Counted from the first letter of the stretch, positions 7,576 to 27,707 are shown. The stretch is 49,272 bases of DNA from Rotaria socialis (GCA_905331485.1 CAJNYT010000219.1:1-49272), one strand, 5' to 3'. Program-made: numbers and translations. Notes: generated by a model from the sequence alone, not told the origin.

Positions 7576-9954
7576 TTAGACTTCTTTAAATAATATTCCG
7601 TAGGGTCGAACATTCTGTGAATTGTTACACGTCCATATATCTCGATTGTGCTTTGCGATCGAACTATTATTAATTCTCACTTGAAACATAACTTGCAATT
7701 GTCGGCCATTGTATGGTGTTGGCCTAGAGTAGTGTCTACTCCCGGAATATGATGGATTAGGCGATAAATATATGCCTCGACCATGAGCAGAACCATTAAC
7801 AATAGGTATCCCATTACTACCTCCAGCAATTAAACCATTACGTAGTATAGCTAAAGCATTGGCAGTTGCAGTACCATGATAAGCTACAGGCCATGCATCT
7901 TTGCCCTCCGCTAGCCATTCAGCATTTTCATATTTTCCAAGTACTTTAATAGCCTTTCTATACCATCCGCATGGCCTTGTATAAGGTTCTGGTCCACGTT
8001 GAAAAGTTCGACCGGCATCATTTCTTGTTGTAAAATCGTAGTCGTAAGTGCTATCAAGAAACTCTTCATCTAGCATAACACGATTTACAAAACGATTAGT
8101 CCGAGCAGTAGCACTTGAAAAATGTGGAATATAAGCTGCAATTGAACTCTGATTGTATTGATAAAATCGAACGTTTTGATCATCTTCCCATCGATTTATA
8201 TCATTATCAATATTCCAATAACTTAATCGAATACTTTCAGGACATGTATATTCAGATGGTTCATTTATTATTAATAGTGGACAATGCTCTTTTTTATCAC
8301 TAAATTGAATATGATCAGCTTTGAAATGAATAACTGATATAATTCGATTATAATTTTCTTCTAATGTTCCTTTGTCCGGTACATAATCTTCGTTTTTCCA
8401 TACAGTATTTGGTAAGGATTTACTTACTACGGACTTTGATTCTGATTCTTGTGCTATTTTATATTCCATTATTCGAGAAGAATAATACATAACAGCATTA
8501 CTTTCATACATATCAGCCTTTTCACACTGAGGACACTTTATTTTTACAGTAGAATTAGACTCTTGTTTAATGGTTGATGTTAGTTTATCATTTAATCTTT
8601 TACAGCACTGGTAACAAAATAAAGCTGAACAATTTGGATTAAGACATAATCTATGTTTTTCAGGTATTAAACGACAATATAAACATTCTAAAGCCGAAGT
8701 TCCTTCCATTTCAAATTTATCAATAATTTTTGATTTACGGTATTCTGATAATCGAACTTTCTTGTAACATGTTGGACAATGATGTTCATGATTTGTATTA
8801 TCACAACTGGATTCAATACAAATGCGACAAAATACTTGTGTACAATATGGGCATTCTAAATTATCATCATTAAGTTGTGATAAACAATTTAGACATTCAG
8901 GTTTATCTATGAAAATTAATGAAGATGTTGACGGTTTATTAATTAAAGTAGCTGAATTAAAATCCGTTTCAACTGCTTGTGCTAAATTAGTTTCATTGGA
9001 TGGCGTTTCTTTTTTTGAGGATATAATTGGATTTGACTGAGTAGGATTTATTTTCTTAATGTTAACTTTATCAATCTGATTATTCAATTCATTGATTTTT
9101 GTTGATATCTTCATCCAATTGCATGATGATTTTAAATTATCGATCAAGAAATCGTTGCTCCCAATAGAAATTGTTGTTGATTTTTTATTTCCAATTGTTT
9201 GTTTTGCTTGCTGGGCGGATTTAATCACATTGATGGTCTCAACTGGAAACATTAAAATAATTGTATTATTATCCAATCGAGCTTCACATTCATAATTTAT
9301 TATAGCAAATTTATCCTTATTGATGTCTGAAACTTTTTGACAGCGATCACTAGGTTGGACTGCATTAATCTGAGATGACCCTATATCTCCGTCGACGATA
9401 GTATCAGGCTGAATATTAAATTTTAATTGAACAATAGAACCAGGATTAATTCCTAAATCCAACATTGGAATATATGCATTTTTATTTAATGAGTAATATT
9501 TTCCATTAGCCATAATTCCTTGCGCATAGCGACCGTCGCAACATCTTACTTTACAAAATTGAGATAACAATAAACGATCATAGGGTAATGCTATTAATAA
9601 TGGATAATCATATATTTGGACTGATTTGAACATGGCCGTTTTTATTAATTTAATATGTGACACGTCAGCATTAGCTGAAATGAATATTTTTTCTAGTAAT
9701 TCAAAGTAATTTTCTACATTCATTGTAATTTTTTCTGATAAATGATTAGTTTGAATCATTTTACCAATATGTTGACATAATTTATTATATCTGAGTGGAT
9801 GAATTAATTGGGACGAAGGAATAATTCCCATTTTAATTTCAGTTATTGGCCAATATCTGAGATCTTGATCTTTACTAACAGCGCTAATAGGTTTATTATA
9901 ATCAGAATTTTCACTTTCTAATTGATTAGTGTTATCGGCAATTAAATGAAACAT
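7576..9954 (-). CDS. Large (792 aa) protein with several Cys-rich zinc-finger clusters (RING/IBR/B-box-like) and a C-terminal PARP-type (H-Y) ADP-ribosyltransferase-fold segment
   Basis: Cys clusters 'CLNCLSQLNDDNLECPYCTQVFCRICIESSCDNTNHEHHCPTC', 'CLYCRLIPEKHRLCLNPNCSALFCYQCC' and 'CPQCEK'. The C-terminal 'WPVAYHGTATANALAILRNGL...GSAHGRGIYLS' matches the PARP H-G-S/T ... IL..GF ... G-x-G-I-Y-F pattern. The ORF stops before the third catalytic position of the ART triad. True ATG start. Confidence 0.6.
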   Translation of the reverse strand: MFHLIADNTNQLESENSDYNKPISAVSKDQDLRYWPITEIKMGIIPSSQLIHPLRYNKLCQHIGKMIQTNHLSEKITMNVENYFELLEKIFISANADVSHIKLIKTAMFKSVQIYDYPLLIALPYDRLLLSQFCKVRCCDGRYAQGIMANGKYYSLNKNAYIPMLDLGINPGSIVQLKFNIQPDTIVDGDIGSSQINAVQPSDRCQKVSDINKDKFAIINYECEARLDNNTIILMFPVETINVIKSAQQAKQTIGNKKSTTISIGSNDFLIDNLKSSCNWMKISTKINELNNQIDKVNIKKINPTQSNPIISSKKETPSNETNLAQAVETDFNSATLINKPSTSSLIFIDKPECLNCLSQLNDDNLECPYCTQVFCRICIESSCDNTNHEHHCPTCYKKVRLSEYRKSKIIDKFEMEGTSALECLYCRLIPEKHRLCLNPNCSALFCYQCCKRLNDKLTSTIKQESNSTVKIKCPQCEKADMYESNAVMYYSSRIMEYKIAQESESKSVVSKSLPNTVWKNEDYVPDKGTLEENYNRIISVIHFKADHIQFSDKKEHCPLLIINEPSEYTCPESIRLSYWNIDNDINRWEDDQNVRFYQYNQSSIAAYIPHFSSATARTNRFVNRVMLDEEFLDSTYDYDFTTRNDAGRTFQRGPEPYTRPCGWYRKAIKVLGKYENAEWLAEGKDAWPVAYHGTATANALAILRNGLIAGGSNGIPIVNGSAHGRGIYLSPNPSYSGSRHYSRPTPYNGRQLQVMFQVRINNSSIAKHNRDIWTCNNSQNVRPYGILFKEV

Positions 9955-10016
9955 AATTAATTGTAAAACTGAAATGGACTCATTTTCTGATAATAGTGTT
10001 TTTGATTCTTTACGTT

Positions 10017-10688
10017 CTAATAATAATAATCGGATTTATGAATAATTAATAATCGAAATGGTGGTAATGCAACACGATTTAATCGAAAAGAAAGTTTTAA
10101 AATTTCTTCGTATAATTCTTTTGCTTCATTTTCTAATGAAATCATTATATTTTCATATACTAATACATAATCAGCAAGATCAACAGGTATTGTGTCAATG
10201 TTATCACTATATAGTATAGTGGATAATATCAGATGAGCTGCACCAATAGTCATAGATTTCGGCAACCAAATCGATTTTAATTGACTATTTTTTGTTGTAG
10301 AAGATAATGAATTTAATGATTTAACTGAATAAATTTCATATTTAACCATACCAGCATCAGTGGTCTGATTTATATTATTAACAGTAATAAAATTACTAAA
10401 AGTTGTATAGAGATCATTGACAAATTCGTGTAAGATTGGATTGCCTTTTAAGTCTAAGACTTTTGTTTGTGCTTGTTGTTGAGATTTCTCAATTGTTTCT
10501 TTAACTATTTTACCGTGATCTTTTGATGAAAATGAATTAAAACAATACTTTTCACTTTCAAATAATGCTTTTAATATATTGACAGTTGTTGGGGTGTCAT
10601 AGATAATATTACTTATTGTGTTGTTTCGGTTATTCGCATTAAGATCATTAGTATCGCTTTGATTGGGAACAGTGGAGGAATTACCCAT
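10017..10688 (-). CDS. 223-aa ORF with an MGNSS N-terminus (N-myristoylation-type motif); unknown function, possibly a separate upstream gene or 5' partner of the 7576..9954 gene
   Basis: Uninterrupted ORF on the same strand immediately upstream of the 792-aa ORF. True ATG start. No recognisable domain. I could not find a usable donor that joins it in frame to the downstream ORF. Confidence 0.35.
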   Translation of the reverse strand: MGNSSTVPNQSDTNDLNANNRNNTISNIIYDTPTTVNILKALFESEKYCFNSFSSKDHGKIVKETIEKSQQQAQTKVLDLKGNPILHEFVNDLYTTFSNFITVNNINQTTDAGMVKYEIYSVKSLNSLSSTTKNSQLKSIWLPKSMTIGAAHLILSTILYSDNIDTIPVDLADYVLVYENIMISLENEAKELYEEILKLSFRLNRVALPPFRLLIIHKSDYYY

Positions 10689-11451
10689 TTTTTATTCGTT
10701 CGTAGGCAGAAAATCTGAAATTGTAGTCAAACTATAAAAGTAATACTAACATCGGATTAACTATAAAAATTTTGTGCTAATGATTCGAACAGAAACTCTT
10801 CTAATCGTCGTCCTTCTTCTATCTTAAGAAATTAAAAGACAAAAAGACCGCTTGATAACAGATAAAGAAGAATATTAAAATAAATAGAAGGATGTTTTCA
10901 TATTATCTAATCATTGCTGCTAGATCCTAATAGATATATTTGGCATTTGAATAGATAATTTTAACTTGTGTTCAATATCATATAACACTGTTGTATGGAA
11001 AAAATTTTTATTGCCAACGAAAAATCGTCAACCCACTTGTTTGAACAAGAATTTAAATATTTCAATTTTTTATTGTAGTGTTTTTTATGGGTCACCCTGT
11101 ATATAAACGAAACGAAAAGAAAAATGTAATATGAATCATTACTAACAACAAGAGACATGAAGAGAAACTCAAGGACACGCATATATAGTGAAATCTATAA
11201 TAAAGAAAGTACCAATAGTCTCCTCTGAACACAGTACAGATCATAACTATCTAATATAGATGAATAAATTATGAATATATCAGTGGCTGGCATGTGTAAG
11301 ATTTGCATAACTTGATGCAACCTAATTCACATATTCTTCAGTTCTATCTGAGTCGATTGAATGTAAAAGCTTTTCAGAATAAAGTAAAAATCATGCCAAC
11401 TTTAAAAAATTATTTCCTATGTAATGTTAACTGGCTGTCTCTTGTTTCAGC

Positions 11452-11508
11452 GGATGTGGATGTGTGTGCGCTATCTTTAACCCAGCCTACGCCCACACCC
11501 ACACACCC
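11452..11508. repeat. Degenerate inverted telomeric-repeat module
   Basis: ggatgtggatgtgtgtgcg ... cgcccacacccacacaccc. Confidence 0.6.
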
Positions 11509-11542
11509 TTATGATACTTGACGTCTCTTATTGATCCTTGTA

Positions 11543-12551
11543 TTAGAGATCTGAGCTACGTAAACTCCAGAGTTTAATTATCCATTTGTTTGCGATTTCA
11601 TCAAAGTGGCACGATGTTACCTTAGCAGGAAAACCATCGAAAATCAAAAGTTCTTGTTCATCCGGATAATTTGAATATGGGGACATATCCAGAGAGCCGG
11701 TATCTTTTTCGAGGTCAATGACAAAAAGAAAGTTGCTGCCAAAGAATTCGGCCACGTTCGGATTAAGAGTAGTTGAGGTAAACGCCGGTAATTGGATTTT
11801 TCTTTCAGAGACAACGCATAGTCGAAATTGTTCAATTTGTTCGTTAGTCATCGTTGCTCCTCGATATACTATCATATTAGTGGGAGTAAAATTCATAGCT
11901 GAATTCAATAGTACAGCAAATGGGCCGTTTGGCCATCCATTCACCTTCTCGTTGCTTCCCCACCTTTTTCGCTTCGATTATAAATCCTTCCGCTGCCTTT
12001 TCTATCCACATCTCAAGTACTGACTGACAAGTGATACCTTTCTCCCAACCAACGCCGTAATGAGAACAAGCTTCTTGAACAAAATCAGGAGTTGTTGGTT
12101 CAATTTGCCAGTTTATGAAACTGTTCGAAGGCAAAACTGAATCTTCCAAGAAACGTTCCGCTCTTACTCGTTTCTCTCGTTCATCCTTGTTACGATCAAC
12201 TATACGTTTCACTGGCCGTTGTTTCTTTTCGTCATTATTAGAGATTTGCATAGAACGTGCAAAAACGATATGATAGTCGTCGAGAAGAGCTTCTGGTAAG
12301 CCTTGTTGGAATGCTTCTTCGATGATTTCAGTTTCTACATCGGTGTATTTTCGCCATTCAGCAGGTTCTGCAAAACAGAAAGGAAGCGCATTAGATTGCC
12401 ACAGCCACTCTATATACTGCTTGGCAATCAATGCAGTAGTAGTCATATACGCAACGACCAAACGGTAGCAGTAAAGATTAGATGTGATAGTAAAAAGAAA
12501 GAAAATGAAAGATATATTTCGTTTCATTATTGACTCTTTTTGTTGTTCCAT
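11543..12551 (-). CDS. Secreted R-S-E clade mono-ADP-ribosyltransferase (arginine-specific type), two exons (12551..~11945 and ~11898..11543), ~320 aa
   Basis: The 224-aa ORF has a signal-peptide-like N-terminus (MKRNISFIFFLFTITSNLYC) and the helical N-domain. The 133-aa ORF carries the catalytic triad: 'VYRG' (R), 'FTSTT' (S-T-T) and 'DEQELLIFDG' ([Q/E]-x-E). The two ORFs overlap in different frames. A 46-nt segment with a GTGAAT donor and a TTCAG acceptor removes the overlap and joins the frames exactly (...KQRE-A-MNFTPTNMIVYRG...). The second ORF's 'M' is GTG, which is consistent with it being internal to an exon. Confidence 0.75.
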
Positions 12552-12797
12552 TCTGTGGCTGGAAGAAAGAAAAAAAAGAAAGGAAATGAAAGGAAATGAA
12601 AGGAAAGAAAAGAAGGAGACAATGTTGGTTAACTTCTGTTATGACACGTCTATAAGCTGTGTCATAAGATGAAAGGTATCACCCAAATATCTTGAGGATG
12701 TGTATAGTAAACAGAGACGTGCACAGGATATAATTTTTTCTCCTGCTCTTGCCTGTCCTGTTACCTACCTTGGTTCTGGTGGGCGGCAGGACAGGAG

Positions 12798-12867
12798 AGG
12801 GTGTGGGTGTGGGGTGTGTAGAGGTGGATGTGTGAGGTGATGCTTCTCTTCACTCACACTCACACCC
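12798..12867. repeat. Inverted telomeric-repeat module
   Basis: gggtgtgggtgtggggtgtgtagaggtggatgtgtgaggtg ... cactcacactcacaccc. Confidence 0.8.
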
Positions 12868-13387
12868 TAAAAATGGAAAGAAAACAAAAACGTATGACGA
12901 AAAAGCAGTAGGTCTCATTAAGTTTTGAGTCTCGATATATCTATAACAAAGGTTGAAGAGGAGCTGGCCATGCAATTTTGGCAGAGAAAAATTTGCTGTA
13001 TCAAACGAAATATTATTCAAAAAGGTTCTGATAGCTTACTACAAAAAACATAACTAAATACTAACTTAACCAATTTTCTATAAAAAAAAGTCGTTTTATT
13101 GAACTGTTGAGTGCGCATTGTTTTTTATTTTGCCATAACTGACGACCTGTAGATCCTTACATGTTGAGGGCGTATTCAATGCGTACTTCATAACATTTTA
13201 GCAGTGACCTAGAGTAAGCTAAATATTTGGATTTGTAGGTTTTTTTATCTTGCTCTTTCATTTCCTATCACAAAGTATAGCGTCTAAAATTTTTGGAAGT
13301 GCGATCCTGTGAAAAAAGATTCGATTTTCTCACGGAGCGTCTCTGAATTCACACTATTAAAATTCAGTATTTAGCGGGTGACTAAGG

Positions 13388-13510
13388 ATGTGGGGAGTGT
13401 GGTGTGGGTGTGGGTGGGTGTGGGTGTGAGTGTGTGTGAATCGCCAAACAAAACACCTATAGGGCACCCACACCAGCACCAACTCACGCCCATACACCAA
13501 CACCCACACC
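13388..13510. repeat. Inverted telomeric-repeat module (long and degenerate), abutting a TIR element
   Basis: G-strand 13388-13438 (gtgggtgtgggtgggtgtgggtgtgagtgtgtgtg), C-strand 13466-13510 (cacccacaccagcacc...cacccacacc). Confidence 0.8.
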
Positions 13511-13516
13511 AGAGAC

Positions 13517-14460
13517 CGTCACAGGGCAGGGCAAAAGTTTTTGCCCTGCGCCCTGATAATTTTTCCTATAAACTGATATACAGCATATTTTTCAGTAGAT
13601 TATGCTGACATGGTGATGGATTATAATGTATGTCATTATGCGCCAGTCACTGTGAAATTTGTTACTATGTCTAGTTCGGACAATACCAGTTTACTCATTT
13701 ATTATCATATAATTCAATTATAAAAATAAAATACTGCTTCTAAGAGAAATGCAAAACATGGTAGAATCATTTAATATTGTATAAGAGAACGAGCTAATTT
13801 AAGAATTATGTGTATGATGAGCTTTTTTTCTAAATGATTTCAGACATGAGCTTAGTATTCCAGAGGAAATTTCACTTGAAGATTCAACATGTTCTAATGG
13901 TAACTTTCTTCGCATGTTTTAGTTTTGTATGCTTAGTTCTCTATGTTTTAAATTATTTTCACTTGATATGAACTCGCCCGGTTTTACAAAATTAGAAGAT
14001 CTCTTATTTCATGATAAATCTTACCGCCCCATAATACACAATGAATCTCTTGCTACTGGTACATTTTGAAGAGTCTTTATTTACCCAGCACGATGAGTTG
14101 AGGAGAATACATGTGAAAGATTTACTTGATTTCTCACTTATTCAAATTATGTACATATTCAATCGCCAGATCACGATAAGCGCATTATTTTTGCAGTGAA
14201 CTGATTTTTGTGATAATCTTAATTGCTGTTTGCTACTCATACTTAATTATGTTTTCAGCGCATATCTATATTTTCTCGAATATAGATAAATAAAAATACG
14301 AGTACTTTACTTTTCAGCGGTTACAACATTTTCATTTAGTCTTTACCTTTTTCAATATTTCAGTTCAATTTATAATCACGCCCTGTCCTGCCCTGAGACA
14401 GGGCAGGATATAGCAGGGCGCAGGGCAGGACAGGGCAAAAAGTTGCCCTGTGACGATCTC
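13517..14460. mobile_element. TIR-bounded element (~940 bp) with GC-rich palindromic termini (CGTCACAGGGCA...GCCCTGCGCCCTG), flanked on both sides by telomeric repeats
   Basis: Left 'cgtcacagggcagggcaaaagtttttgccctgcgccctg' (13521-13559); the reverse complement of the right end (14395-14458) is 'cgtcacagggcaactttttgccctgtcctgccctgcgccctg'. No ORF. Confidence 0.6.
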
Positions 14461-14475
14461 TGATCCACACCCAGC

Positions 14476-14545
14476 TTTTGTTAAATTATTTATTAAATGC
14501 CAAGATTTATTTTTTCTGATCGATAGAATGGTATTTGTGTATTGA
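14476..14545. repeat. Dispersed ~70-bp repeat; second copy at 619-690
   Basis: 'gcttttgttaaattatttattaaatgccaagatttatttt(t)ctgatcgatagaatg' at both sites. At 14475 the homology starts exactly after a CACACCCA telomeric tract. Confidence 0.75.
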
Positions 14546-17500
14546 ATGAGAAGGGAAATGAAAATTTTTCACTTCTATAAAAACATAGTTGTAAAATATT
14601 TTAACAGTTAAAATAAATATTAAATTCGATTTTACTCATCAATTAATTGAAATTAATAGTTTAGAAAAATCTATTCTATTATGAGCAGAAATTATCAAAG
14701 GTTAAATGAATTTACATAGTACAGAACAAAAATATATGAATCGTTACTATTGCGATGTAATCGAACAAATGCTTCGAGTGCTAGAGGCATCATTATATAT
14801 TGAACTATGTAGAAGTTTATTAATAATAATCTATGAAACTCATTTAGTCTCGGAATATTATCTTCGTAGACATTGAAATTTTGTAAAAATACAATTTTAG
14901 TTTTAGTTTTCTATCATTTGAAATAGGAAATGACTTTTATTGTAATTAAGAAAGCAGTAAAATATCTTATCATCGAAGTCATCCATGATATCTAAGTGAA
15001 ATTATTAGAGATAATCAAGTTGATTTGTTCCGAATTTCATTTCAACACGTTTTGTATTCGTTTTCAATTGTATTTAATAACTGATAAACATGGTCAAGTA
15101 TTATTCAAATATGAATAATTCTGTTGTATTTAAACATAAAGATTTCGATTGAACATACGAAGAGAAACTTTCATTGCTAATGAAAAATATTGAATAATCA
15201 TTGAGACATTTGAACGACTTGTCTTCGCTTTTAAGAATGACGCCAAAATATAAACCTATTTTAATTAGTTCGACACACAGCTATTTAGTCACGCTCGATT
15301 AAATATATATAATTATTTACTTGTAAACAAATTATTTTTTAAAAAATAATTGTATATTTAAATGGCAAATATATTTACAAAAAAAAGTGTTGCTTGAAGT
15401 TCACTGTGATAATGGTTGTGGTTTACTTGTCAATGAAAATTGTCGAGAAAATCTTTTGTTTTTTTTCTTTATTGAATAATCTTTCTCTTCATTTTTGTTA
15501 ATTAGTCAATACATTTATTAAATTATATTCGAACTCATTATTATTTGTCATCATCAATAAAAAATGGATTTATGTTTAATAAATAGTGGAGAACCATTGC
15601 ATCTTTCATCATCTGATACAAAAATTATTTCATCAGGAAGATATTGTTTTCCGTCTCTTTTTCATTGAAGATCTGGATGCATGATATTCACCTCACACAT
15701 TCTACTCTTGTCTTAGTGCATGGGAAAAGACACATATATTTTTGTTGAACAGAAATCTTATTTTCAATCTTTTTTATTTGCTTAGTTTAACAGCTTTGGT
15801 GTGAATGAGAGATGAGCACAATATGCTCTCCCATCCACACGTTTGCCTTCGAGCTATTTTTAATTATTTGTCTCTAGAATAATGATAAAATTGTTAAACT
15901 TGAAAAAAAATCATTCATAAATATGAAATATCTAATAACTTATCAATATATATTCGAGTTTTATGATAGCACATCAATATGCGTATAAAATTCTCCATAG
16001 GTGCACACTTATCAATAAGGAAATGGATGATCTTAACCATTCTATCGTTTCTAGTACTATAATGGGCCACTTCTACAGTTCGATATATCAAAAATTAATA
16101 GATTACATCTACATTGAAAATATCTGGTAAATAGTTTCATCGGATTAATTCACCTATATATTTCTTTTTTTCTATAAGGAATCTTTTTGTTAACATAATT
16201 GATTATCAATGATCGGCTATCATTTAGACGATGTCCGTCAAGCATTGTATAAGTATACGTCTATTCTATTATCCGATAGACACATTATATCGACAATGAA
16301 TTCTTTATCAGGTATGAGTATGTGTAGCTCTTTGATAATATCATTTATTTGTATTATTCTTCTGTACAGAAGACTCCATGCAGCTGGTCGATTTACTTGA
16401 TGAGTTAATTTTAATTATCATGTACAAAGTGAAACCTAAAGTGTTATTGCTTTGTTCTACTATCACTATTGATAATAATCGTTTAGCAAAACTTGCACTT
16501 GATATGTATCATTCAATTGATTTAACTTTTAAGTATTTTCAATCACCATATCAATTTATTATTCCACGTTTTTACACACATTTTATGCCTTGTATCATTA
16601 ATAATATTCAACTTACACATTAGGTAAACTATGATTAACTATCGCTTTAGTTCATTTTCTACTTATAAAATAAGATAAATTCTTATTTTTTCAGAATTAA
16701 AAAAAAAGAACTCTACTTTAAATATAGAAGATTCAAGTGGCTTTTTAGGAACATTTAAGCAGAAAAGATGTGAGACTTTTTTAAGTATTCATTGCGATAA
16801 AAACTTTATGATCAAAATTGTGTTCCTTAAAAATCTTATATTTCGATCATAATACATTTAAAAAGAAGGAACCATTAGATGATATGCTAGTCTACTAGCC
16901 TCCTATCTCTGACCAGAATATGAGCTTTAAACATTATAATAACCTGGTTGATTCTTCTTCTCCTTAGATATTCCTAAAAAACAACTCGAATCTTCTGTAT
17001 TTCGAGTGGAAGTCGACAAAAACCTTTTCCAAAAAAATGGTTGAATACCGATGATTTTACCCTTCTGATAAAATCTATACTTAGGAAAACATTGATATTT
17101 GTATATATTATTAGGCAATAACCTTTACTGTGTTTCGCGGTGTTTTACTCTCTTCTCAAATATACCTCAATTTTCTGTACGTACTGGATAAGAGCAATAC
17201 TGCTCGCACTTGATCTAAATTCTTTTGTTCACTATCTGTGTCTTCTATTGTATCTTTCGAATTGGATGATGATTGTATTTTAAAAAATATATTTTAAAAT
17301 GGCGATGATTTAATTTTTCCTGAATCAATCCATCTGACTCTTATTCGAATAATATTATTTGAATTCGAACGTTGCATTTTTTTACTTAATCAATTGGGCT
17401 CATAATTATGTTCATTCGTTGTAAGTGTGTGGTGTTTGTTTCTGCATCAGATGTTGGTATTTTTTCTAAAATTAAATCAGTAAGCAATATTTAGTAATTG

Positions 17501-17899
17501 CAAATCTCATTTAATTAATTCATAAAGATTTCATGTCCTAATTTGAAACGATTGGCAATGAAAATTTGTTTCTTCCTGTTTTACAATGTTGATCAAATTT
17601 CGAATATTTAATATTATTATTAGCTATTGAATTCAAAAGAAATACACCCAAACGTTTTATTGATGGATTTGATTTGGATAAACACATTATTTTATGCATG
17701 CCTCATTTATGTCAATTTCATATTCGTTCAATATTACCAAATGCTGCTCATGTAGAAATCGAGAATGAACTTGAGCGACAAGAAAAAATAGAAACGACAA
17801 CAAATAATCTTGAATTTACTCATTTAACTACTCTGATTTTATTTGATATTCATTTGGATTATGCTGAACAATTACTTTGTCGAAGCCATTTTCCTTCTC

Positions 17900-18720
17900 T
17901 TATTGTGCAGCGGTAGGCTTTTCATTTAAGGAAATGTGCTCCAACCGCATTAGACCATCCATACGTATAGGCTTCTGTTTTTGTTTACTTTCAATACAAA
18001 CGCCATTAGCTACAGTACGAAATAGCTGCGTAATATCTTTATTTGGCTTTGCTATGTGTTTCAATAGATGTTTGGCGAATAATCCATTTCTATCAGTAGT
18101 ATCACCATCAGAGGCAATTTGATTTGGGCTACATGCAAAGACGACGTAGCTGCCATCCGGTACTTCCATTGCATGTAAACTAATACCTTCGAGCTTCGCT
18201 AAAACAACGATACGTGATACATCTTATACGGCACAATTTTGACTAGTTTTTGCTACCAACCGTTTCTTTGCCTTTTGTTTTTTGGATAGTGTACTCGACA
18301 ACAATCTAGTATAAATACCGTCACAAAGGATGGATTTTTTTGTCTTAATTGATGAAGAGTGCGTTCGGCACAAGTACAATAATCCTCAACATCTTCATCA
18401 GATTTAATTAAATCATCATCTACGTGAGCCAAATATGTTCTGCCATTAACGTGATAGCCATGGCCAGAAAAGTAGAACATAACCAAATCGCCGTCAACGA
18501 TTGTCTCAGCAAAAGCGGATATTGTAGAGGCCATTTGTGACTTTGTAAGATCACGTGCCGTTTTTACCTGAAATTTAATATTTCGTAGCACGTTACTAAG
18601 ATCATTAGCATCATTGATACAATGACGAAGTCTATCTTCAGATTGAATATAATTCTGGTTTCCGATAACTAATGCTATTTTACGGCGAGGCCTTGAGGCA
18701 GTAGAATTCAGAGTAGCCAT
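17900..18720 (-). CDS. Caspase-family (peptidase C14-like) protein: p20-like part (18253..18720) plus p10-like part (17900..18169), split by a short intron or frameshift
   Basis: 'KIALVIGNQNY...CINDANDL...FQV', 'FYFSGHGY' (catalytic His-Gly) and 'ILDCCR' (catalytic Cys, D-x-C-R type) sit in the first ORF. 'GSYVVFACSPNQIASDG...NGLFAKHL' in the second ORF is the typical small-subunit motif. The open frame upstream of the second ORF extends to '...RIVVLAKLEGISLHAMEV'. A candidate 62-nt intron (weak GTTGGT donor, TTGTTTTAG acceptor) would join the two parts. Confidence 0.6.
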
Positions 18721-18889
18721 GAGAATTATTTTTTTCTAAAAGAAAATAACTCAGTTAAATTACACGGCTGATAAGTATCGGACACTCAGGATACTTTAAT
18801 AAATAGACTGCAGATAGATTTTTGATGTATTTTAACTTTGTATCTGTGTGATACACTTACATATTGTATTGTTCTCTTAGAACGGTTCT

Positions 18890-19480
18890 CAATAGCATAT
18901 GAGCGCATGCGGTAAGTCTTTTTCCTGAAAAACTCTTCCACTCATTCTCTGCAAATGGCACTTGTACTTTTCCGCGGCACAATCAAACACATCATTTAGT
19001 ACGAGCAATGTCGTAATCAGTTTTCCTTCCCGTTTCGCCATATTTCAGTCCATGAGCATCGCGAAAAATAAAGTACGCTGAAGGATGGACTAGTAGACGT
19101 TTTGATTGTAAACGATCAGTATTATTCATGTATAGAAAACGATTTTAGAGAATATTAATTATGCTGAATATTTACTTATAAACAATCAAAAGCACAACGA
19201 AACCTTGTCAAACCGTTTTCTATACATGAATAATACTGATCGTTTACAATCAAAACGTATAATAGTCCATCCTTCAGCGTACTCTATTTTTCGCGATGCT
19301 CATCGACTGAAATATGGTGAAACTGGAAGGAAAACGGATTCCGACATTGAAACATGTAAATGGAATAATATGTTTTTGAACGCTGCTCGTGCTAAATGAT
19401 GCGTTTGATTGTGCCACTGAAAACTACAAGCGTCAATTGCAGAGAATGAGTCGAAGAGTTTTTCAGAAAAAAGGCTTACC
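18890..19480. repeat. ~590-bp foldback palindrome (arms ~255 bp, loop 19142-19212)
   Basis: 19041-19141 is the reverse complement of 19213-19312 with near-perfect identity. The outer arms still match ('agagaatgagtggaagagtttttcaggaaaaag' at 18925 versus 19441). The ORFs 19205..19399 and 19300..19482 are mirror-image artefacts. Confidence 0.8.
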
Positions 19481-20126
19481 ATATACGCTCATATGCTGCT
19501 GAGAAGCATGCAAAATACAAGGAGGCCTATTATTTTTGTCTGTCCATTATAAGAGTGATTTATAAGCAGCTACGTAAAGAACATGATATATTTTTTCACC
19601 TTAGGCAAATATTAGTTTTGGCTCATGACGCGAACTTTCGAAATGTTTTATTAATATTTCACAATACGTATTTTTGATGACGTCATTACTCTGAATAACA
19701 GATGAGATATGTTTTAATCACAGTCAAGTTATTAGAATTTTCAACGTTGTTTTAACAAAAAATACGTCTAAGTGATATAGGTAAAGTTAGCACCAAATTC
19801 GGTTATTTTTTGTCCGGATTAGCTCAAGAACGTGCGTTCGATGTAAAATTAAATTCTACGTCGAATTGCATTATTTTCAATAGTGGTCATCGAGCAAGAA
19901 AAGGGGCTCAGGATGAAATACTAGAGTTCGGGTGCACGATACCATAATCTTGATAGGCATTATTGAAGTTGGTCAAAAGATTTCAATCGCCACATAGGGT
20001 TGGACCGTTTGTTAGCTATAATATGTATAGAATGAAAGAAAGATATAAGGAATGAAAGAGGGATATATAGAGAGTGAAAGAGACAAGCAGTGTCACTGAT
20101 GTTATGTGACAGAACGAAGAAAAATA

Positions 20127-20198
20127 TGACCTTCATGGAGATCGAACCCATACCTTCTGCTATCCAGGCAGATGTCCTACCAGTTAGACTAGAAGAAC
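20127..20198 (-). tRNA. tRNA-like Pol III element (72 nt cloverleaf with A and B boxes); aberrant anticodon loop, so a tRNA pseudogene or SINE head is possible
   Basis: Minus strand: acceptor GTTCTTC/GAAGGTC (one mismatch), D-arm GTCT-AACTGGTA-GGAC, anticodon stem TCTGC/GCAGA with loop CTGGATA (anticodon GGA, but position 37 is T), T-arm ATGGG-TTCGATC-TCCAT, discriminator A, then a T5 terminator. Confidence 0.35.
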
Positions 20199-21252
20199 GT
20201 ATTAATCTTCGTTTAGCGTTATTGTGATCCGTCACTAACGCTATCACCGTTGATTTTAATTTGAGTTAATTAAGAGAGTTAATTAAGTGGTTTTACTTAA
20301 CACTTAATATTACATTAACGTAAACTGACACCCCTATAGCCACGTGACAGACGAGATCCTTCTTCATAGGAGAGCAAATCTAGCTGACAAGAAATTGAAT
20401 CAATAGCACACGAAATTAGCTTTATTCTCGACTCGAATGACTCGATCAACACTACTGTTTTAACGAGGAGCACCTTTTATGGCAAGACTATCATGATATT
20501 GTTTCAGAACAACAAATTTGGCCAGTAAGTGATACAAAAATTGAACTAACATGGCAGAAGTAGCTGTTCCCGTCTCTTGAATATAGGATGAGATGATAGC
20601 TACACTGTAAAAAAAAGAGGGTTTATGAAAGTGCAACGTGACACATACCCTTTTTTCCGTTTTTGAAATATCTGATAAACCCCTTTTCCAAATCATAAAC
20701 CTAAAAACTGTTTATTATCTTCGTCATATGCGGAAAAAAAGTTTATGACACGTTGCACTTTCATAAACCCCTTTTATTGGGTGCGGGTGTGTAAGAAACT
20801 ACCACGACGCTTTTCGACTGATGCTTAGTCAGTCTCATCAGGTGACTTAGTGTCTCTAGTTCGATTCAAAAAAATTTGAACAAAAAAATTCAAAATCAAT
20901 TCGAGAATATTATTCTGCTCTAATTCACGATGAAGTAGAATGGTAATATCTTGATGGTGTGGGTGTGTATTAAGTTTAGAAATTAACTACAACTAGTTTC
21001 GATTTTTCTGATGGGTCTTCATCAGATGGTTTAAGCGCTGTATAAGATATCAAATTGAAAGGAAAATTTCAAAAAAAAAATTCCTGGAACTTTTAATATC
21101 AAAGCAAAGAAGAGAATTCTCAACACTTAGTACAATGCTTGATCCAAAGATCATTGCAAAATACTTAGAAGAACTAAAAGTGTACGCGGAAGTGAAATTT
21201 TTAGCTAAAATAGACAAGCGAGTGTGAGAAGAATAATCATAGTAAATTTTGA

Positions 21253-21304
21253 GGATGTGGGTGTAAGCAATCTTTGTATTAACAATCCCACTCACACCCA
21301 CACT
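21253..21304. repeat. Inverted telomeric-repeat module; isolated G-tracts also lie at 20771-20790 and 20941-20958
   Basis: gatgtgggtgta ... cactcacacccacac. Confidence 0.6.
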
Positions 21305-21699
21305 TTACAGTATCTGAGCTTTGGATGAACCCATTTTCTGACTAATGGAAGATCGGATAGGAAAAATGACGGTGGATTCGGGTTCCTGGATCTCCATGAC
21401 CTATTGCAAATTTTGATAGTTTCGAAGAATCTGTTTCGCGTCTTGGTGTAAGCGTGTGTCTCTTCACGACATAGAGCATCTGTGAAACCCGTAAGAAACA
21501 TGAAGGAATACAAGCATAGTTTTTCATAAAAATTTAGCGTTAAATGCTGATGTGGTTTGTATTAGGTTTGATACAGGAGCATTGACTATGTACAGGAAAT
21601 GTAGAGATGGTGATCGGATCCTATTGAAAACTGATCGAAAACGATAGTAGGAAAGTATATTGATTCCGACTTTTGAATCCGTTGTCGGATTCTGTATAG

Positions 21700-22010
21700 A
21701 ATTGATCGAGCTGATGAGTTGTAGTCATTAGAAACAATCGATTGTTAATCAAACAATTCGATTGTAAAATATTTGGATTTCAATCGGTAGAGAAGATTTT
21801 AATCGATTGTAAAATTAAAATCAGTTTCAACTGCTGTAATTAGAAATAACCGATTGATAATCTATCAATTTGATTTTCCAAGATTGAAATTTCAATTGAT
21901 TGGGAAGATTTCAATCAATTGTTCGATTAAAATCAGAGTTTAAGGGGTAAAATCATCAATAATTGATAGAATAGATTAAAACTTGAATCAATTGCTGGAT
22001 TTTAGTCGGA
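21700..22010. repeat. Satellite-like low-complexity block built from CAATCGATTG / TTGATTGAAA-type units
   Basis: Repeated 'caatcgattg', 'aatcaattg', 'gattgaaat' and 'ttcaatcg' motifs over about 300 bp. Confidence 0.55.
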
Positions 22011-22256
22011 TTAATTATATTACAAAAAGAGGTAGTTTGGTTCGAGAAATCGGATTTGGTCAACCATAATTAAACATAATCACGATTTTATGAGGGATAT
22101 TTTTCACTGGAAAGTAATAACAAACAAACAAACAACAAATAAGTAAATACAATGATCGAAAAGAAAGAAAACATGAAAGAGTTACACATAACGACGATAA
22201 AGATAGATGCTGTAACTTGAAAAAGGTATAGACATATTCGTCAATTGATTAAAAGA

Positions 22257-22940
22257 TACCCTAGACAAACATCTTGTAAGCAAGATCTTGGTCAAGATAC
22301 AAGGTACAGATATGTTAACAGATCTTGGAAATTCAGGTACAAGATAACTGTATTATCTTGTACCCAAGATCTAATTACAGATCTTACATAAGAATTCATT
22401 AAATCTTGGATGCACACTAAAATAATACCTGCTGCATTCTTTTATATTTTTTCAATATATTTTCATTTTAATTATTCCTCTTCCGAATTCCAGCAAGTCA
22501 GATGTTGCGATCTGACTGGCTATAAATTGGTCTGATATCCGCCGGACCAATTAGGGAAGTCCTCTCTCGATCATCGATCGAGATCAGCATTCTCTCGAAT
22601 AATCGAGAAATAGTTGAGAAAAAAAATTTTGAAAATTTGTATTTTGTATGTTCAACCATGCTGTTTATATACAGCTGTGTATCCATTTTAAAACGGTGAA
22701 TGACTAGAGAGCATGTAAATACACTAATGATGTCGCTTTCTGTTTCGCTCAAGATCTTATCGGAAGATAATAGTACACGATATTTTTTCCATGATCTTGA
22801 CAAGTTCTTAAGTACAGATTTATCCGATACAACCAAGATATGTACATGCAAATTATCTTTTTAAGACCTTAATAAGATCTTACTTACCGATCCCAAGATT
22901 CCCAGATCTTGCTTACAAGATGTTCGACTAGGGTAGACCA
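22257..22940. mobile_element. TIR-bounded non-autonomous element (~680 bp) with ~35-bp terminal inverted repeats and multiple subterminal AAGATCT motifs
   Basis: Left end 'taccctagacaaacatcttgtaagcaagatcttgg'; the reverse complement of the right end is 'taccctagtcgaacatcttgtaagcaagatctgg'. The internal 117-aa ORF (22498..22851) has no recognisable domain. Confidence 0.65.
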
Positions 22941-23098
22941 TATGGCAATCTCGGAGTTGATCGTTTCTTCGTTCTAATAACAACTTCGTTCAGTATTATT
23001 TTTAAATTATTAGCATTCAGCAAGGACTTCTTATTGAATACTATAGTTCATTTTATCAGTCGCCTTAAACTTTTGGAAGTTTGACATTCATTCCGATT

Positions 23099-23162
23099 TG
23101 TGTGTGGGTGTGGGTATGGGCTGATCATGAGTCAGATAGGCACCTGCACCCACACCCACCCT
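23099..23162. repeat. Inverted telomeric-repeat module
   Basis: gtgtgtgggtgtgggtatggg - filler - cacccacacccaccc. Confidence 0.8.
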
Positions 23163-24862
23163 CGTGACTCACGCATGGTGAAAACCCCACCTCGCTATCT
23201 TGTTCCTATCAAAAGTTATTCAAAAAATACCCACCGCCTTTTTTTAAATGGGCAGTAGGTTCTTTTAGAATTTAGTTAATATACTGTGCAGATTATTGCA
23301 CTTTGTTTGTGATTTCTTTTGAATAAATTGAAATCATTTAAAACACGTATGGCAGAGTCATTACCATCTGATGACTTCATTAAACTAGGACGAAATCTGG
23401 ATCATGGTATGCTTGACACACCCACAACGTCTTTTTATCACACACCAAATCCAGTAATTAATCAACTGTTACACAAAAACAACTCGTCAATTCTGTCGCC
23501 ACCTCATCAATCACCATTGCCACATCATCCACCACTAAATCAGATCGTATCATAAACATTTTTATTCATAATCAGCACCTAACGTTTGCTTTTTTTCATC
23601 GTATTTGAATTACTTTATCATCAGCTTTTCTCTTTTTAATCATCTCGCATATTGTTTCTAGTGAACAATATGAATTATCTGAAGTTTTTCGTTCTTTTTA
23701 CTCTTACTATATTCTTTTCGGTTTTGTGGAACTCACATATATTTTCGAAGAAAATGGTGAGAGTAAGTTTAAAAGCGAGATTTTTGCGGCTCCCCACCCC
23801 CTCCCCATTACAGGCATTAATTAGCTTAAAATTGTGCTAATTAGGAGCTTGACTAATTAGGCTGCTGTTTCTTCCTTTTTTAAACTACAGACTGCACGAA
23901 AAAGCGATGCTTGCCCATTACAGACCATAGAAACTAGTATCTGTCATTGATAAATATACGAGCTAACAATTAATACTCAATTACAGATATAAGCAAATAG
24001 GCAATAACCTAATTATAAGCTTTGGAAATCAGGGTAGATTTTTTAGATGAACTATTTTGAATTATTTTAGTAAGCCAAAGGGATATATGTGAGTTCCACA
24101 TTTTAGCCACAAAGGGGCTGTACTAATAAGCTTTTCTTCTTCTTCTTATCATGGTGTTTGAATCGTTTCAATCTCGTATTCTATTGTTATGTGAAGGTCC
24201 TTACTACCTTTCCGCTGTATATATATTCAAATAAGTAAACCCAAAAGTGTCCCTACTACATAACTAACTAGCTATATATAGCGACAGAGAGAACACAGAG
24301 AGAAAGAAGATAGACCATGAACATATAGATAGTACGAATCAAACAACAGGCGAGATGTAGGAAGATAATAAGAGATACTGTAGATGGGGCGACTCTACGA
24401 CCTAACCGGAGAGCAGGTCGTAACACCACCCCGCAACTAACAAGATGCGCGCCCGCGCATCAACAGAAATGGAAAAAAAACCAGGAATACATAGGAGAAA
24501 AAAGAAAGTGGAAAAAAAACGAAAAAAACGAGAAAACTAGAAAAGGGTTAATGAGATTGACAGATGATTGTAGTCGAGGACAAAACCCTAACCAATTTGG
24601 CTTGTCATGTTGTCGATCGATGTCGATGATTGACATAAAGTCATTTCCTCGGACGATCGCCATTGCCACACCGTCGAGCCGCCTTCGCCACCTTGTTGAA
24701 GGAAGACAATGATAATGAAGAATGGGCACCGTCGCCACCCCGGCGACACCTGCTTTGTTGAAGCATATGCTGTTGAGAAGAGGATCACAACAGGCTCGGT
24801 TAATCTGCCAACAATGCTACGTTGTGCCGCTCTAGCACTTGTCGAAGTTGACTAACATGGCT

Positions 24863-24954
24863 GGGTGTGGGTGTGAGATGTGGGCGGGCATAATTTTGAT
24901 TGTGCGTACATGAGACAATAGAATAATATTCATACCCACAACCACACCCACACC
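24863..24954. repeat. Inverted telomeric-repeat module (58-bp filler)
   Basis: gggtgtgggtgtgagatgtgggcggg ... catacccacaaccacacccacacc. Confidence 0.8.
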
Positions 24955-25437
24955 GATTTAACCATAAACTCGCTGATGGAATTAGTTAGGCATTCTTTTT
25001 TGAAATTATATTTATTTCAAAGCAAATTTTGAAATTATTATTTTGTTGTCAGGTAGGACGATTATTGAAACTCTAGAGTTAAGACTAACAGATTGATTTA
25101 TATGAAAGACATACGGATAGGAATTCACTAGTACAGTCGGACTGGTACACCCACCTTCAATCTCATCCCCAGTCTGACCCTTCGAGTGGGGAACCCAAAA
25201 CGGTCCCGTTCCGGATGGGACTGAATTCGGAACCAAAAAATAATTTTTTGTGGAACCGGGACTAAATACTTTTTTAGTCAGTCCCGAGCAAATTTTTTAA
25301 AGAAAAAAAATCGTCTATAGTACTTGGTTCTTTTATTTTCAAGAAGTAATTTCACTATTTTCCCTTTCATATATTTTATAATACAAGAAAATCTTCACAA
25401 ATAAATATTCAAAATTTTAAAACAACACGATAAACTT

Positions 25438-25495
25438 GAGGGTGTGGGTGTAGACTGAATTAAAAACAGCGTATCCACATCGACACCCACACCCA
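25438..25495. repeat. Inverted telomeric-repeat module
   Basis: gagggtgtgggtgta ... cgacacccacaccc. Confidence 0.8.
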
Positions 25496-25832
25496 AAATA
25501 GAAGTGTGTTTCAGAAAATCGGGACCTGGACTGAAAAAAATTAGTCGGGCTTGGGATGGGATCGGGACCAAAAAGGGTGGTCCCTCATTTCCCTACCTTC
25601 CAGAGATAAGGCTTTATTTTGAAACTAGTTTTTGTATGCAAACTCACATGTTGTAAAATGTTTTTTTTTATTCTGTGCGATGATAATATTAGGAAAAATA
25701 GATAAGAGAAATTGCGTTGTACAGAATGAAATAAGCACAACGGAAAAATTATTTATTTTAATATTTGATATTCAACACAAGAAGACAGGCAAAAATACAT
25801 TATATTTTAACGAAAATTCATTTTAGGAGTTC

Positions 25833-27707
25833 ATGACTTCATTAACGAAAAATCTTGAAGGTCTGACTATTGTATGGCTTGATGTTGATCGTATTCATCA
25901 AAACACCGATGATTATTTTGATACGAAAAATCGTCTACGACAATGCAATAATTATATAGAAATATATCATGATCCAAATGAGTGTATTCATGGTATAATA
26001 GCGAATGGATACGTTTTTCTAATCGTTTCTGGTTCAATCTGCGAAACATTTATTCCGCTGATTTTTGAAATCAAACAGATCGTATTTATTTACGTTCTAT
26101 ATTCGGATAATCAATTGACGGACACCTGTGAACTAAAAACTATTTCAAAACTTCATGGAATATTCTCAAGTAAAAACCAACTTATTGAAAAACTGAAACA
26201 AGACGTCAAATCATATTTGAAGAGTTTGCCACTAACATGTATCGTCAATGAAAAGTCAATTCGTGCTTTAAACAAAGAATATTCTACGTTTATGTGGACT
26301 CAATTGCTTATGGACGTTTTAATTCAAATACCTCAAACAGATCGTGCAAAAATGATGATGTTAGAAGATTGCCGATTGCATTATGCTGATAATAAAGCTC
26401 AATTAGATGATATTAACGAGTTTCAAGAAAAATATGAACCAGACTTTGCAGTTTGGTGGTATACACGTGAGAGTTTCGCATATAAACAATTAAACCAAGC
26501 ACTACGTACACAAGATATTGACATTATTTTTAAATATCAATTTTTTATAAGAGATCTTTATGTACTATTGAAAGAATTATATGAAGAATCTATGCCATCC
26601 TTAGAAGAAATATCGATTGTCTACCGTGGCCAACATATCAATTGTGATGAATTGGAAAAAATAAAAAATAATGTGAACGGTCTTATTTCAATGAATTCAT
26701 TTTTATCAACAACTCGAAACAAGAATCGAGCTTTAATATCCGCCGGTGATGGTTCAAATAGGCCCTCGCTTGAATCCATCTTATTTGAAATTACGATTAA
26801 TAAAAATGTTGCTGCTAAAACTAAACCATTCGCTGACATTACAAAGATGAGTCAATTTGGCAAGGCAGAAGAAGAAATACTATTATCGATTGGAAGTATA
26901 TTCAAGATTCAGTCAGTTGAACAGTTAGCTGAAAATGCTCATGTTTGGGACGTTAAGCTAATATTAAATGAATCAGTGGTGATTAATGAAATAGACATGT
27001 TATTCAATTATTTCAAAATGAATTCAACTACAAGTATATCGAATGTCGGTACATTAGGTTTACTATTAGGAGAGATGGGAGAATATGAAAAAGCGGAAAA
27101 ATATTATCAAATGATGCTTGATGAATTATCAACAGATCATTGCGGAGTTCCAATAATATTAAATAATATGGGAGTATTATACAATGATATGGGTAATGAT
27201 GAAAAAGCATTAGAATATTATAAGAAATCATACGAAAGTTATAAAATGCAAAACGTATCAGAAAATGATCTTCTCTTAGCGAATTTATATCATAATATGG
27301 GTTCATTGTATTATGAAAATGAGTATAATAAAACAGCATTGAAATATTTTAAAAAAGCTTTTAAAATTTGTAATAATAATTCTACGCTACCCAGTCTTTT
27401 ATTATCTGCAACATTATATACAGACGTGAGTGGAATATATCAAGATAATGAAGATTCTGTTAATGCATTGGATCAGTTGCAACACACATTTGAAATCCAA
27501 AAAAGAATTCTACCATCAACTCATTTCAGAATCGCTGCAACATACAATAACATAGGAAGTGTTTATCTTTGTAAAGGAGATTATGCAAAAGCATTAGAAA
27601 ACTTTGAAATAGCCTTGAATATTGGATTAAAATCTTTGCCAGCCGATCATGAACATATTCAAACATATCGTGAAAATATAAAACATGCTAAAGAAAGAAT
27701 AAAGTAA
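25833..27707 (+). CDS. ART-TPR protein: R-S-E mono-ADP-ribosyltransferase domain followed by about 4 TPR repeats, with an uncharacterised N-terminal domain; 624 aa
   Basis: 'ISIVYRGQ' (R), 'SFLSTTRN' (S-T-T) and 'GKAEEEILLSIGS' (E-x-E). The C-terminal TPR-like repeats include 'LGEMGEYEKAEKYYQMML', 'MGVLYNDMGNDEKALEYYKKS', 'MGSLYYENEYNKTALKYFKKAF' and 'IGSVYLCKGDYAKALENFEIAL'. True ATG with an in-frame TAG three codons upstream. Confidence 0.85.
   Translation: MTSLTKNLEGLTIVWLDVDRIHQNTDDYFDTKNRLRQCNNYIEIYHDPNECIHGIIANGYVFLIVSGSICETFIPLIFEIKQIVFIYVLYSDNQLTDTCELKTISKLHGIFSSKNQLIEKLKQDVKSYLKSLPLTCIVNEKSIRALNKEYSTFMWTQLLMDVLIQIPQTDRAKMMMLEDCRLHYADNKAQLDDINEFQEKYEPDFAVWWYTRESFAYKQLNQALRTQDIDIIFKYQFFIRDLYVLLKELYEESMPSLEEISIVYRGQHINCDELEKIKNNVNGLISMNSFLSTTRNKNRALISAGDGSNRPSLESILFEITINKNVAAKTKPFADITKMSQFGKAEEEILLSIGSIFKIQSVEQLAENAHVWDVKLILNESVVINEIDMLFNYFKMNSTTSISNVGTLGLLLGEMGEYEKAEKYYQMMLDELSTDHCGVPIILNNMGVLYNDMGNDEKALEYYKKSYESYKMQNVSENDLLLANLYHNMGSLYYENEYNKTALKYFKKAFKICNNNSTLPSLLLSATLYTDVSGIYQDNEDSVNALDQLQHTFEIQKRILPSTHFRIAATYNNIGSVYLCKGDYAKALENFEIALNIGLKSLPADHEHIQTYRENIKHAKERIK

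Follow-up and report, generated by a model that had tools for sequence, protein, structure and literature searches.

The juxtaposition of several ADP-ribosyltransferase (ART)-fold genes with a caspase-like gene at one locus of the bdelloid rotifer Rotaria socialis raises the question of whether these genes are kept together as a unit, or whether their neighborhood was assembled piece by piece. We addressed this question in a stretch of 49,272 nt (GCA_905331485.1 CAJNYT010000219.1:1-49272), hereafter the window, to the whole of which all coordinates refer. An earlier note on this DNA had described three unrelated ART-fold genes, one of them coding for a secreted protein, and a caspase-family peptidase within 20 kb, and had put forward the hypothesis of a subtelomeric immunity or conflict island assembled by gene capture. 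The closeness of these genes and most of the domain assignments are borne out, but three details, namely that the ART gene at 11543-12551 is intact, that its product is secreted and that the ARTs are unrelated, are not; as for the interpretation, the cassettes, the foreign-looking genes and their capture stand, but the functional island does not. The 20-30 kb stretch in question is a mosaic and not a unit, made up of about ten segments of 0.5-12 kb, and we consider it probable that it arose through breakage, healing of the ends by telomerase and rejoining in a scar-rich region.

Convergent telomeric junctions

Telomeric repeats are present at 33 sites in the window, against 0.03 expected, and 28 telomere-like runs were detected as opposed to 0.8 in shuffled sequences. 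Their layout is nearly always the same, with a (TGTGGG)n run followed by an unrelated spacer of 20-70 bp and then by a (CCCACA)n run. This convergent (+/-) order is invariant under reverse complementation, and is the arrangement expected where two telomere-capped ends meet head to head. The +/- order is seen in 8 of the 9 adjacent pairs in the window, which by a hand calculation has a probability of ~1e-4 if the four orientations are equally likely. When the window is combined with seven other loci, 22 of 25 adjacent pairs are +/-, the remainder being two +/+ pairs and one -/- pair, with no -/+ pair at all. Convergent pairs were encountered at the loci that we designate L007, L010, L014, L016, L018 and L022, the longest arms being those of about 150 bp in L014 (1285-1433 / 1469-1615). 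The density of these scars in the window is 5.28 runs per 10 kb, whereas 672 kb of metagenomic loci bearing homologs of the ART-TPR gene discussed below, a background biased toward easily assembled, scar-poor regions, have 0.09 per 10 kb (a difference of ~59-fold).

Junctions composed of (TGTGGG)n, spacer and (CCCACA)n are found at 3560-3620, 6868-6958, 11452-11508 (with a degenerate + arm), 13389-13510, 21256-21303 (with short arms), 23102-23159, 24862-24954, 25440-25495, 27724-27778 and 39772-39826, and a + strand run at 12799-12818 has no clear partner arm. The segments that they delimit hold a PurA-like gene (3620-6868), a RING-RING-PARP-like gene, here called PARP-ZnF (6958-11452), a WWE-ART gene (11508-12799), the caspase-like gene with a tRNA-Ser (13510-21256), the ART-TPR gene (25495-27724), and a GT1 glycosyltransferase gene together with a PARP4-like gene (27778-39772). 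The earlier description of cassettes set apart by telomeric-repeat modules is hence upheld, with each gene segment placed between convergent junctions and only GT1 and the PARP4-like gene sharing one. The contig sequence extends ~88 kb past the left end of the window in one contig and ~132 kb past its right end in another, as obtained by coordinate arithmetic. This places it away from the very tip of a chromosome, and the subtelomeric position supposed in the earlier note is no more than a possibility.

Mobile elements were considered as sources of the repeats. A Terminon or Athena source was rejected, given that Rfam searches recovered only a tRNA and no hammerhead ribozyme, that no reverse transcriptase open reading frame (ORF) was found, and that Athena addition would give repeats in the same orientation and not convergent ones. 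A miniature inverted-repeat transposable element or other transposon with telomeric inverted ends was likewise rejected, because the spacers vary in both sequence and length. A literature search, beyond the reach of which lay the primary papers of 2007, 2008 and 2017, returned nothing specific on convergent telomeric pairs or on bdelloid ART expansions.

Gene-order breaks at the junctions

Comparisons with other Rotaria genomes point to the segments as the units that are conserved, and relate the junctions to changes in gene order. Around ART-TPR, R. socialis and Rotaria sp. Silwood-1 are homologous only over 25599-27723: the junction at 25440-25495 forms the left edge of the ART-TPR segment, and that at 27724-27778, only 17 bp past the ART-TPR stop codon, forms its right edge, where the homology ends. 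In Silwood-1 and Silwood-2 the neighbors of ART-TPR are instead a hexokinase, a 2-oxoglutarate oxygenase and a FERM protein. The homology to Silwood-1 in the region of PARP-ZnF ends before either flanking junction is reached, and past them no coding sequence is homologous. The junction at 6868-6958 aligns to junctions in the sister species R. magnacalcarata and in Silwood-1; these matches are at the level of the repeat and are weak evidence of a shared position, with a similar placement downstream of the gene.

The most direct case is provided by one R. magnacalcarata assembly (GCA_965140935.1; L016:6960-7260, equivalent to window ~8078), in which the PARP-ZnF frame breaks off at ...TNRFVNR. 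TGTGGG repeats take over directly at this point for ~120 bp, and a 16-bp spacer then leads into a short telomeric run of the C strand, past which the DNA is unrelated. The repeats come after ...AATCGTG, and a short match to the repeat unit is seen there. Neither the PARP domain nor any of the PurA segment is present at this locus, where ART-TPR-like fragments follow, whereas in the other R. magnacalcarata assembly (L018) PARP-ZnF is intact. The L016 junction is a recent, gene-truncating instance of the same scar, and fits the telomeric repeats reported at deletion breakpoints in Adineta vaga (PMC13564844). Taken with the alignment of other junctions across Rotaria species, it places the junctions at different ages, ancient for some and recent for at least one.

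The gene-order breaks between Rotaria species thus fall at the junctions, which fits piecemeal assembly, and from these comparisons the junctions appear to mark REARRANGEMENTS. Assembly by gene capture, as the earlier note had envisaged, finds support in the cassettes, in the foreign-type genes they hold and in these breaks. Directly shown at this locus are the scars, the orientation that they keep throughout, the way they coincide with gene-order breaks, and one junction that truncates a gene in one of two assemblies.

A proposed model of breakage, healing and fusion

We propose that double-strand breaks at this locus would have been followed by capping of both broken ends with TGTGGG repeats by telomerase, giving rise to neotelomeres, and that ligation of the capped ends head to head would leave the convergent scar of (TGTGGG)n, short filler and (CCCACA)n. 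A compartment rich in such scars would accumulate and reshuffle segments with genes of expanded families and foreign genes. The segments hold members of families expanded in bdelloids (ART-TPR, WWE-ART, caspase-like), the low-copy, bdelloid-only RING-PARP-like gene, and the foreign-type PurZ/PurA-like and GT1 genes. The ART and caspase genes would then be adjacent because the scar-rich compartment collects and reshuffles such segments, and each is a gene in its own right, with flanks and a strand of its own. A retrocopy origin was rejected given that several of the genes retain introns.

Neotelomere formation, or chromosome healing at double-strand breaks, occurs in ciliates, nematodes, yeast and mammals. 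The likeness lies in the direct addition of telomeric repeats to non-telomeric break sequence, as in L016; in the Rotaria case, by contrast, the two capped ends would subsequently have fused head to head, with fixation in the germ line. Head-to-head interstitial telomeric repeats also occur at human 2q13, where they mark an ancestral chromosome fusion with the same order of G-strand and then C-strand repeats. Unlike there, the 49 kb of the window contain at least 10 junctions, whose arms measure 10-150 bp and whose unrelated spacers measure 20-70 bp, and which bound gene-sized pieces instead of whole chromosomes. In A. vaga lines telomeric repeats have been observed at deletion breakpoints and read as neotelomeres (PMC13564844).

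A further possibility, which we put forward only tentatively, is that segments bounded by outward-pointing telomeric repeats are themselves the building blocks, i.e. that broken or foreign fragments were capped at both ends and then fused into the chromosome. If true, one mechanism would cover both the shuffling of host families, such as ART-TPR and the caspase-like genes, and horizontal gene integration, for example that of the PurZ/PurA-like gene, which is alone in its segment.

Several points weigh against the breakage-healing-fusion model. The capping of both ends by telomerase before ligation, and with it the order of healing and then fusion, is what we infer from the scars, as is the origin of the spacers, and spacers of 20-70 bp lack an explanation in the model. 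The gene combination is rarer than the sampled background, with no caspase, WWE or PARP neighbors in 672 kb, and hence selection or a regional effect may have contributed in addition to the abundance of the families; the bias of this background, noted above, also counts here. The intact genes are under purifying selection, with ratios of non-synonymous to synonymous substitution rates (dN/dS) of 0.29-0.31 for ART-TPR and 0.37-0.52 for PARP-ZnF. Finally, the bdelloid gene models P0303, which joins a caspase domain to ART-TPR, and P0363, with a caspase-NACHT-HEAT architecture, point to a coupling of these domains in bdelloids.

Conservation of the gene set and alternative explanations

The alternative that survives best is a functional island, in which the ART, PARP, caspase-like and vWA genes would be kept together and co-regulated in one NAD+-dependent defense pathway; we regard this as unlikely. 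In its favor, conflict systems typically use domains of these types, the families have expanded and show fairly rapid evolution (dN/dS about 0.3-0.5), their co-occurrence is rarer than in the 672 kb of background loci, and R. magnacalcarata keeps WWE-ART, PARP-ZnF and PurA collinear. However, these three are the only part of the gene set that is shared, and only with that sister species. The paralogous islands with the same gene set that the earlier note had suggested looking for did not turn up in orthologous bdelloid loci, in R. socialis itself or in metagenomes. Neighbors differ in Silwood-1/2 and in A. ricciae, where PARP-ZnF is surrounded by GTPases and methyltransferases, and three R. 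socialis loci with ART-TPR and WWE-ART paralogs lie among housekeeping genes; neither the orthologous loci in other bdelloids nor these three loci have caspase, PARP or WWE-ART neighbors. Among 80 metagenomic ART-TPR loci (the 672 kb in question), none has a caspase, WWE, PARP-ZnF or PARP4 neighbor, and eight extra ART domains found in them are tandem copies. The window combination is therefore unusual, and also not recurrent.

The state of the genes themselves speaks against the island in the same way. WWE-ART is a pseudogene, Silwood-1 and one R. magnacalcarata assembly are without the PARP domain, and the genes, which occupy both strands at spacings of up to 5-7 kb, have break scars between one and the next. 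A specific match to known anti-phage defense proteins was sought and rejected, as PADLOC gave only generic caspase and TPR matches. The caspase-ART-TPR and caspase-NACHT-HEAT architectures could be taken in favor of the island, but the former may be a merged gene model, like the PARP4-EF-hand model at this very locus (see below); like the purifying selection on the intact genes and the rarity of the combination, the two support a conflict-type function of the domains generally but do not show the cluster to be a unit.

It is also improbable, in our estimate, that members of large families came to lie near each other by chance in an ordinary gene region and that the telomeric repeats are irrelevant simple repeats. 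Coincidence would be favored by the large size of the families, by distances of at least 88 kb and at least 132 kb to the contig ends, and by the cluster having been singled out afterwards. Against it stand the ~59-fold greater density of telomeric runs than at other ART-TPR loci, their strictly convergent orientation, their placement at gene-order breaks and at a gene-truncating junction in one assembly, and the absence of the combination from the background loci. That the contig is a chimera stitched at telomere-like repeats can be dismissed as highly improbable: repeats can mislead assemblers, and there is an apparent inversion of 10870-17596 in one assembly and a 231-bp duplication in another, but the arrangement is not an assembly artifact because the gene order of the window is recovered over more than 20 kb in six independent NCBI assemblies (identity at least 94.6%, mostly >99.4%) and its left part is collinear in R. 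magnacalcarata, and the junctions also align to those of Silwood-1.

Relationship to known bdelloid mosaics

Telomeric and subtelomeric regions of bdelloids have been described, in the parts of the literature available to us, as mosaics in which short interstitial (TGTGGG)n repeats, foreign genes, ORFs for TPR proteins and truncated genes occur, and haplotypes or isolates differ in structure (PMC2861651, PMC8494291, PMC6431247). The window is a new example of these mosaic regions, with which it shares interstitial repeats, foreign genes, ORFs for repeat proteins, truncation of genes and structural variation. It differs from them in that Pfam, Rfam and ORF scans of the window found no Athena/Terminon reverse transcriptase or hammerhead ribozyme, in that its locus is away from contig ends, and in that its repeats are strictly convergent around gene-sized segments, a feature that we did not find described in the literature searched. 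Such regions reportedly go back to the work of Gladyshev & Arkhipova in 2007 and of Gladyshev, Meselson & Arkhipova in 2008.

As an immunity island the locus makes a weak case, with a cluster that is lineage-specific, partly decayed and not repeated elsewhere. Its interest lies in its being a natural record of how bdelloid gene neighborhoods are constructed, whose scars tie the experimental hints of neotelomeres in A. vaga to long-term genome evolution. The +/- telomeric pairs also offer a simple signature that can be counted genome-wide.

The ART-fold genes

The ART-TPR gene of the earlier note (25833-27707, + strand) is confirmed as an intact ORF, the product of which is identical to a known R. 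socialis protein and lies on contigs of six NCBI assemblies. It codes for 624 aa comprising a CheY/REC-like domain (aa 8-131), an R-S-ExE type ART domain (aa ~140-385) and a TPR array (aa ~400-620). Pfam searches detected the TPRs only, with no ART match at E<0.01; the ART domain is recognized from its motifs and fold. The VYRGQ (R265), LSTT (S292) and EEE (E346/E348) motifs are invariant in 62 homologs, and Foldseek searches with an AlphaFold2 model (predicted local distance difference test score, pLDDT, 86.9) recovered HopU1, Vis, C3 and Certhrax with E-values of 1e-8 to 1e-6. These motifs and folds suggest that the protein is likely to be an arginine-type mono-ADP-ribosyltransferase, whose TPR array would probably serve to bind a ligand or partner protein, with regulation probably falling to the CheY-like domain. 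It shares the fold and the R / S-T-T / E-x-E motifs with the R-S-E arginine ADP-ribosyltransferases, such as C3 exoenzyme, HopU1, Vis, ExoS and the vertebrate ecto-ARTs. In contrast to these, it looks intracellular, with an N-terminal CheY-like pseudo-receiver, a C-terminal TPR array and no signal peptide, and it has hundreds of homologs in bdelloid genomes and metagenomes (at least 317 matches to the family).

The ortholog from Didymodactylos carnosus (L013, a 7.6-kb contig aligned to window 25833-27722) is surprisingly close, with 76.7% nucleotide identity. Its synonymous divergence (dS) is 0.68 as against 0.49 for Silwood-1, whereas the PARP-ZnF ortholog in Adineta has only 42% protein identity. 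Contamination, transfer between bdelloids and slow evolution are all possible reasons for this closeness. L013 and the window (20610-20778) also have a palindromic element of ~165 bp in common. In the A. vaga model P0303 (UJR12444.1), which has caspase, ART and TPR domains, the caspase domain replaces the CheY-like domain of the window protein, and the R. socialis model P0363 (caspase-NACHT-HEAT) is NLR-like; both may be merged gene models.

The second ART gene had been predicted to code for a secreted R-S-E ART at 11543-12551, where Pfam detects WWE and ADPrib_exo_Tox/ART domains in two overlapping ORFs. The R. magnacalcarata ortholog is intact, intronless and 354 aa long. Relative to it the R. 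socialis gene (11543-12446, - strand, with the WWE domain at about 12204-12407) lacks 161 bp at the junction 11927/11926, which shifts the frame; a second R. socialis assembly carries this deletion too. Lost with these 161 bp are the conserved N-terminal helices of the ART domain (Y..SF.Y..LN..R), and the R, STT and EQE motifs persist downstream, out of frame. Comparison with the ortholog thus identifies WWE-ART as a pseudogene, already decaying. The 275-aa database model spans the deletion by an unsupported intron of 76 nt; this and a 46-nt 'intron' that would also rescue the frame were rejected, because the intact ortholog has no introns and the missing stretch has been deleted from the genome itself. 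The ortholog and paralogs start at the methionine at 12446, directly before the WWE domain, and therefore the hydrophobic N-terminal extension is probably untranslated upstream sequence; a signal peptide is accordingly not supported by this start-codon comparison, which was made with no signal-peptide predictor.

The WWE-ART family has 83 matches. Two R. socialis paralogs among housekeeping genes keep telomeric runs 0.5-1.5 kb upstream (L021:8516-9414; L022:9438-9491), those of L022 being a +/- pair, which hints that these two paralogs moved as scar-bounded segments. The claim that the ARTs of the locus are unrelated proved false for two of the three genes, as the ART domains of ART-TPR and WWE-ART are homologous (BLASTP alignment over 183 aa, E 2e-7); the three ART-fold genes fall into two clades. 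In another R. socialis assembly (L004, GCA_965120295.2), an apparent inversion of window 10870-17596 makes the WWE-ART pseudogene adjoin the caspase gene (L004:1-1768 corresponds to window 12637-10870 and is joined to window 17597). It is either a real variant or a misassembly, and no inverted repeats were found at its breakpoints (10870/17597).

The PARP-ZnF gene (7576-10688, - strand) has two exons (7576-9954 and 10017-10688) and codes for ~945 aa. Its earlier description as a Zn-finger/PARP-like gene holds, with two RNF4-like RING fingers at about 8599-8901 and a PARP catalytic domain (PF00644) in the 792-aa exon scoring 30.1 bits over a cut-off of 26.7. PF00644 is also found in its homologs, and the match to PARP14 is weak. 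In the PARP-like domain, at about 7579-8037, the H (AYHGT) and Y (GIYLSP) are conserved across the family alignment, in which no catalytic glutamate at the third position was evident by eye. The domain is absent from the Silwood-1 ortholog, as it is from L016. The family is small, with 11 matches, all the named ones being from bdelloids. From its domains, the protein is likely to be a ubiquitin ligase with either a mono-ART or an inactive PARP fold.

Other genes of the window

The caspase-family peptidase gene proposed at 17900-18720 (- strand) is confirmed by a match to Peptidase_C14 (PF00656, E 2e-28). It has two exons (18253-18720 and 17900-18169) coding for a caspase domain only, of ~250 aa, in which SGHG and DCC align with the catalytic H and C of MALT1, suggesting that it is likely to be a Cys-His protease. 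The best solved relative is the MALT1 paracaspase, and in a large library the nearest proteins are Rotaria orthologs, bdelloid paralogs and an orthocaspase of the cyanobacterium Microcystis, which among the ten top matches looked up is the closest relative from outside the rotifers. The C14 fold and the His-Cys dyad are common to MALT1, bacterial orthocaspases and the window protein; the latter differs in consisting of the protease domain only, with no death, Ig or other partner domains. The family comprises 27,617 representatives with bdelloid paralogs at the top, and 101 C14 proteins have been counted in A. vaga (PMC11258130, a pathogen RNA-seq study whose main text has no mention of ART or PARP genes). 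A 231-bp stretch directly downstream of the gene (17498-17728) is present once in the window and twice in tandem in L001 (GCA_965120325.2). The tRNA-Ser(GGA) in the same segment lies at 20127-20198 (- strand).

The PurA-like and GT1 genes are both confirmed by Pfam, and together with the closeness of the caspase to a cyanobacterial orthocaspase their affinities bear out the description of the neighbors as foreign-looking. The PurA/PurZ-like gene (4280-5362, - strand) is a single-exon gene of the short phage/archaeal type coding for 360 aa (Pfam Adenylsucc_synt). Its best solved relatives are phiVC8 PurZ, Pyrococcus PurA and S-2L PurZ, and it has 206 phage matches at 30-40% identity. The NCBIfam models for PurZ (NF038379, 218.1 bits, cut-off 300) and archaeal PurA (NF003295, 218.3 bits, cut-off 368) are tied, both below their cut-offs. 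It shares GSxGKG and TVTKKxRRVF with phiVC8 PurZ, as opposed to GDEGKG and TVTGRRRRV in Pyrococcus PurA. Phage PurZ enzymes make 2-aminoadenine. Its dN/dS of 0.14 relative to R. magnacalcarata indicates purifying selection, which makes this PurZ/PurA-like gene of an animal worth flagging, and a literature search for PurZ in rotifers found no paper linking the two. The GT1 glycosyltransferase gene, of the macrolide/EryCIII type, has two exons (28479-30079, - strand).

The multi-exon PARP4-like gene (33101-38538, + strand) has the domain content ascribed to it, with PARP, VIT and vWA domains detected by Pfam at 34809-36711. The PARP catalytic, VIT and vWA domains occur in the same order in PARP4 (vault PARP), which is also a multi-exon gene; the first exons yielded no BRCT domain, and the likeness to PARP4 is one of domain architecture. 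A public model of ~2174 aa (L001-L006; window 33101-41700) fuses this gene to an EF-hand (calmodulin-like) gene across the junction at 39772-39826, and almost certainly represents two genes. Two database models are hence corrected here, that with the fake WWE-ART intron and that in which PARP4 is fused to the EF-hand gene. At the left of the window, a 3' fragment of a TPR gene of the ART-TPR family (3355-3600, - strand) is cut by the junction at 3560-3620, with its ORF reading into the repeat; it has tblastn matches from 21 family members and weak TPR_12/TPR_10 Pfam matches below the cut-off.

Toward the right end of the window there are an Hsp70 fragment (44874-45122; Pfam E 2e-5), a perfect 98-bp tandem duplication (45836-46032) and an ORF (48316-48933) that resembles the C-terminus of a PIF1/Helitron-like helicase, with a weak UvrD_C_2 match.

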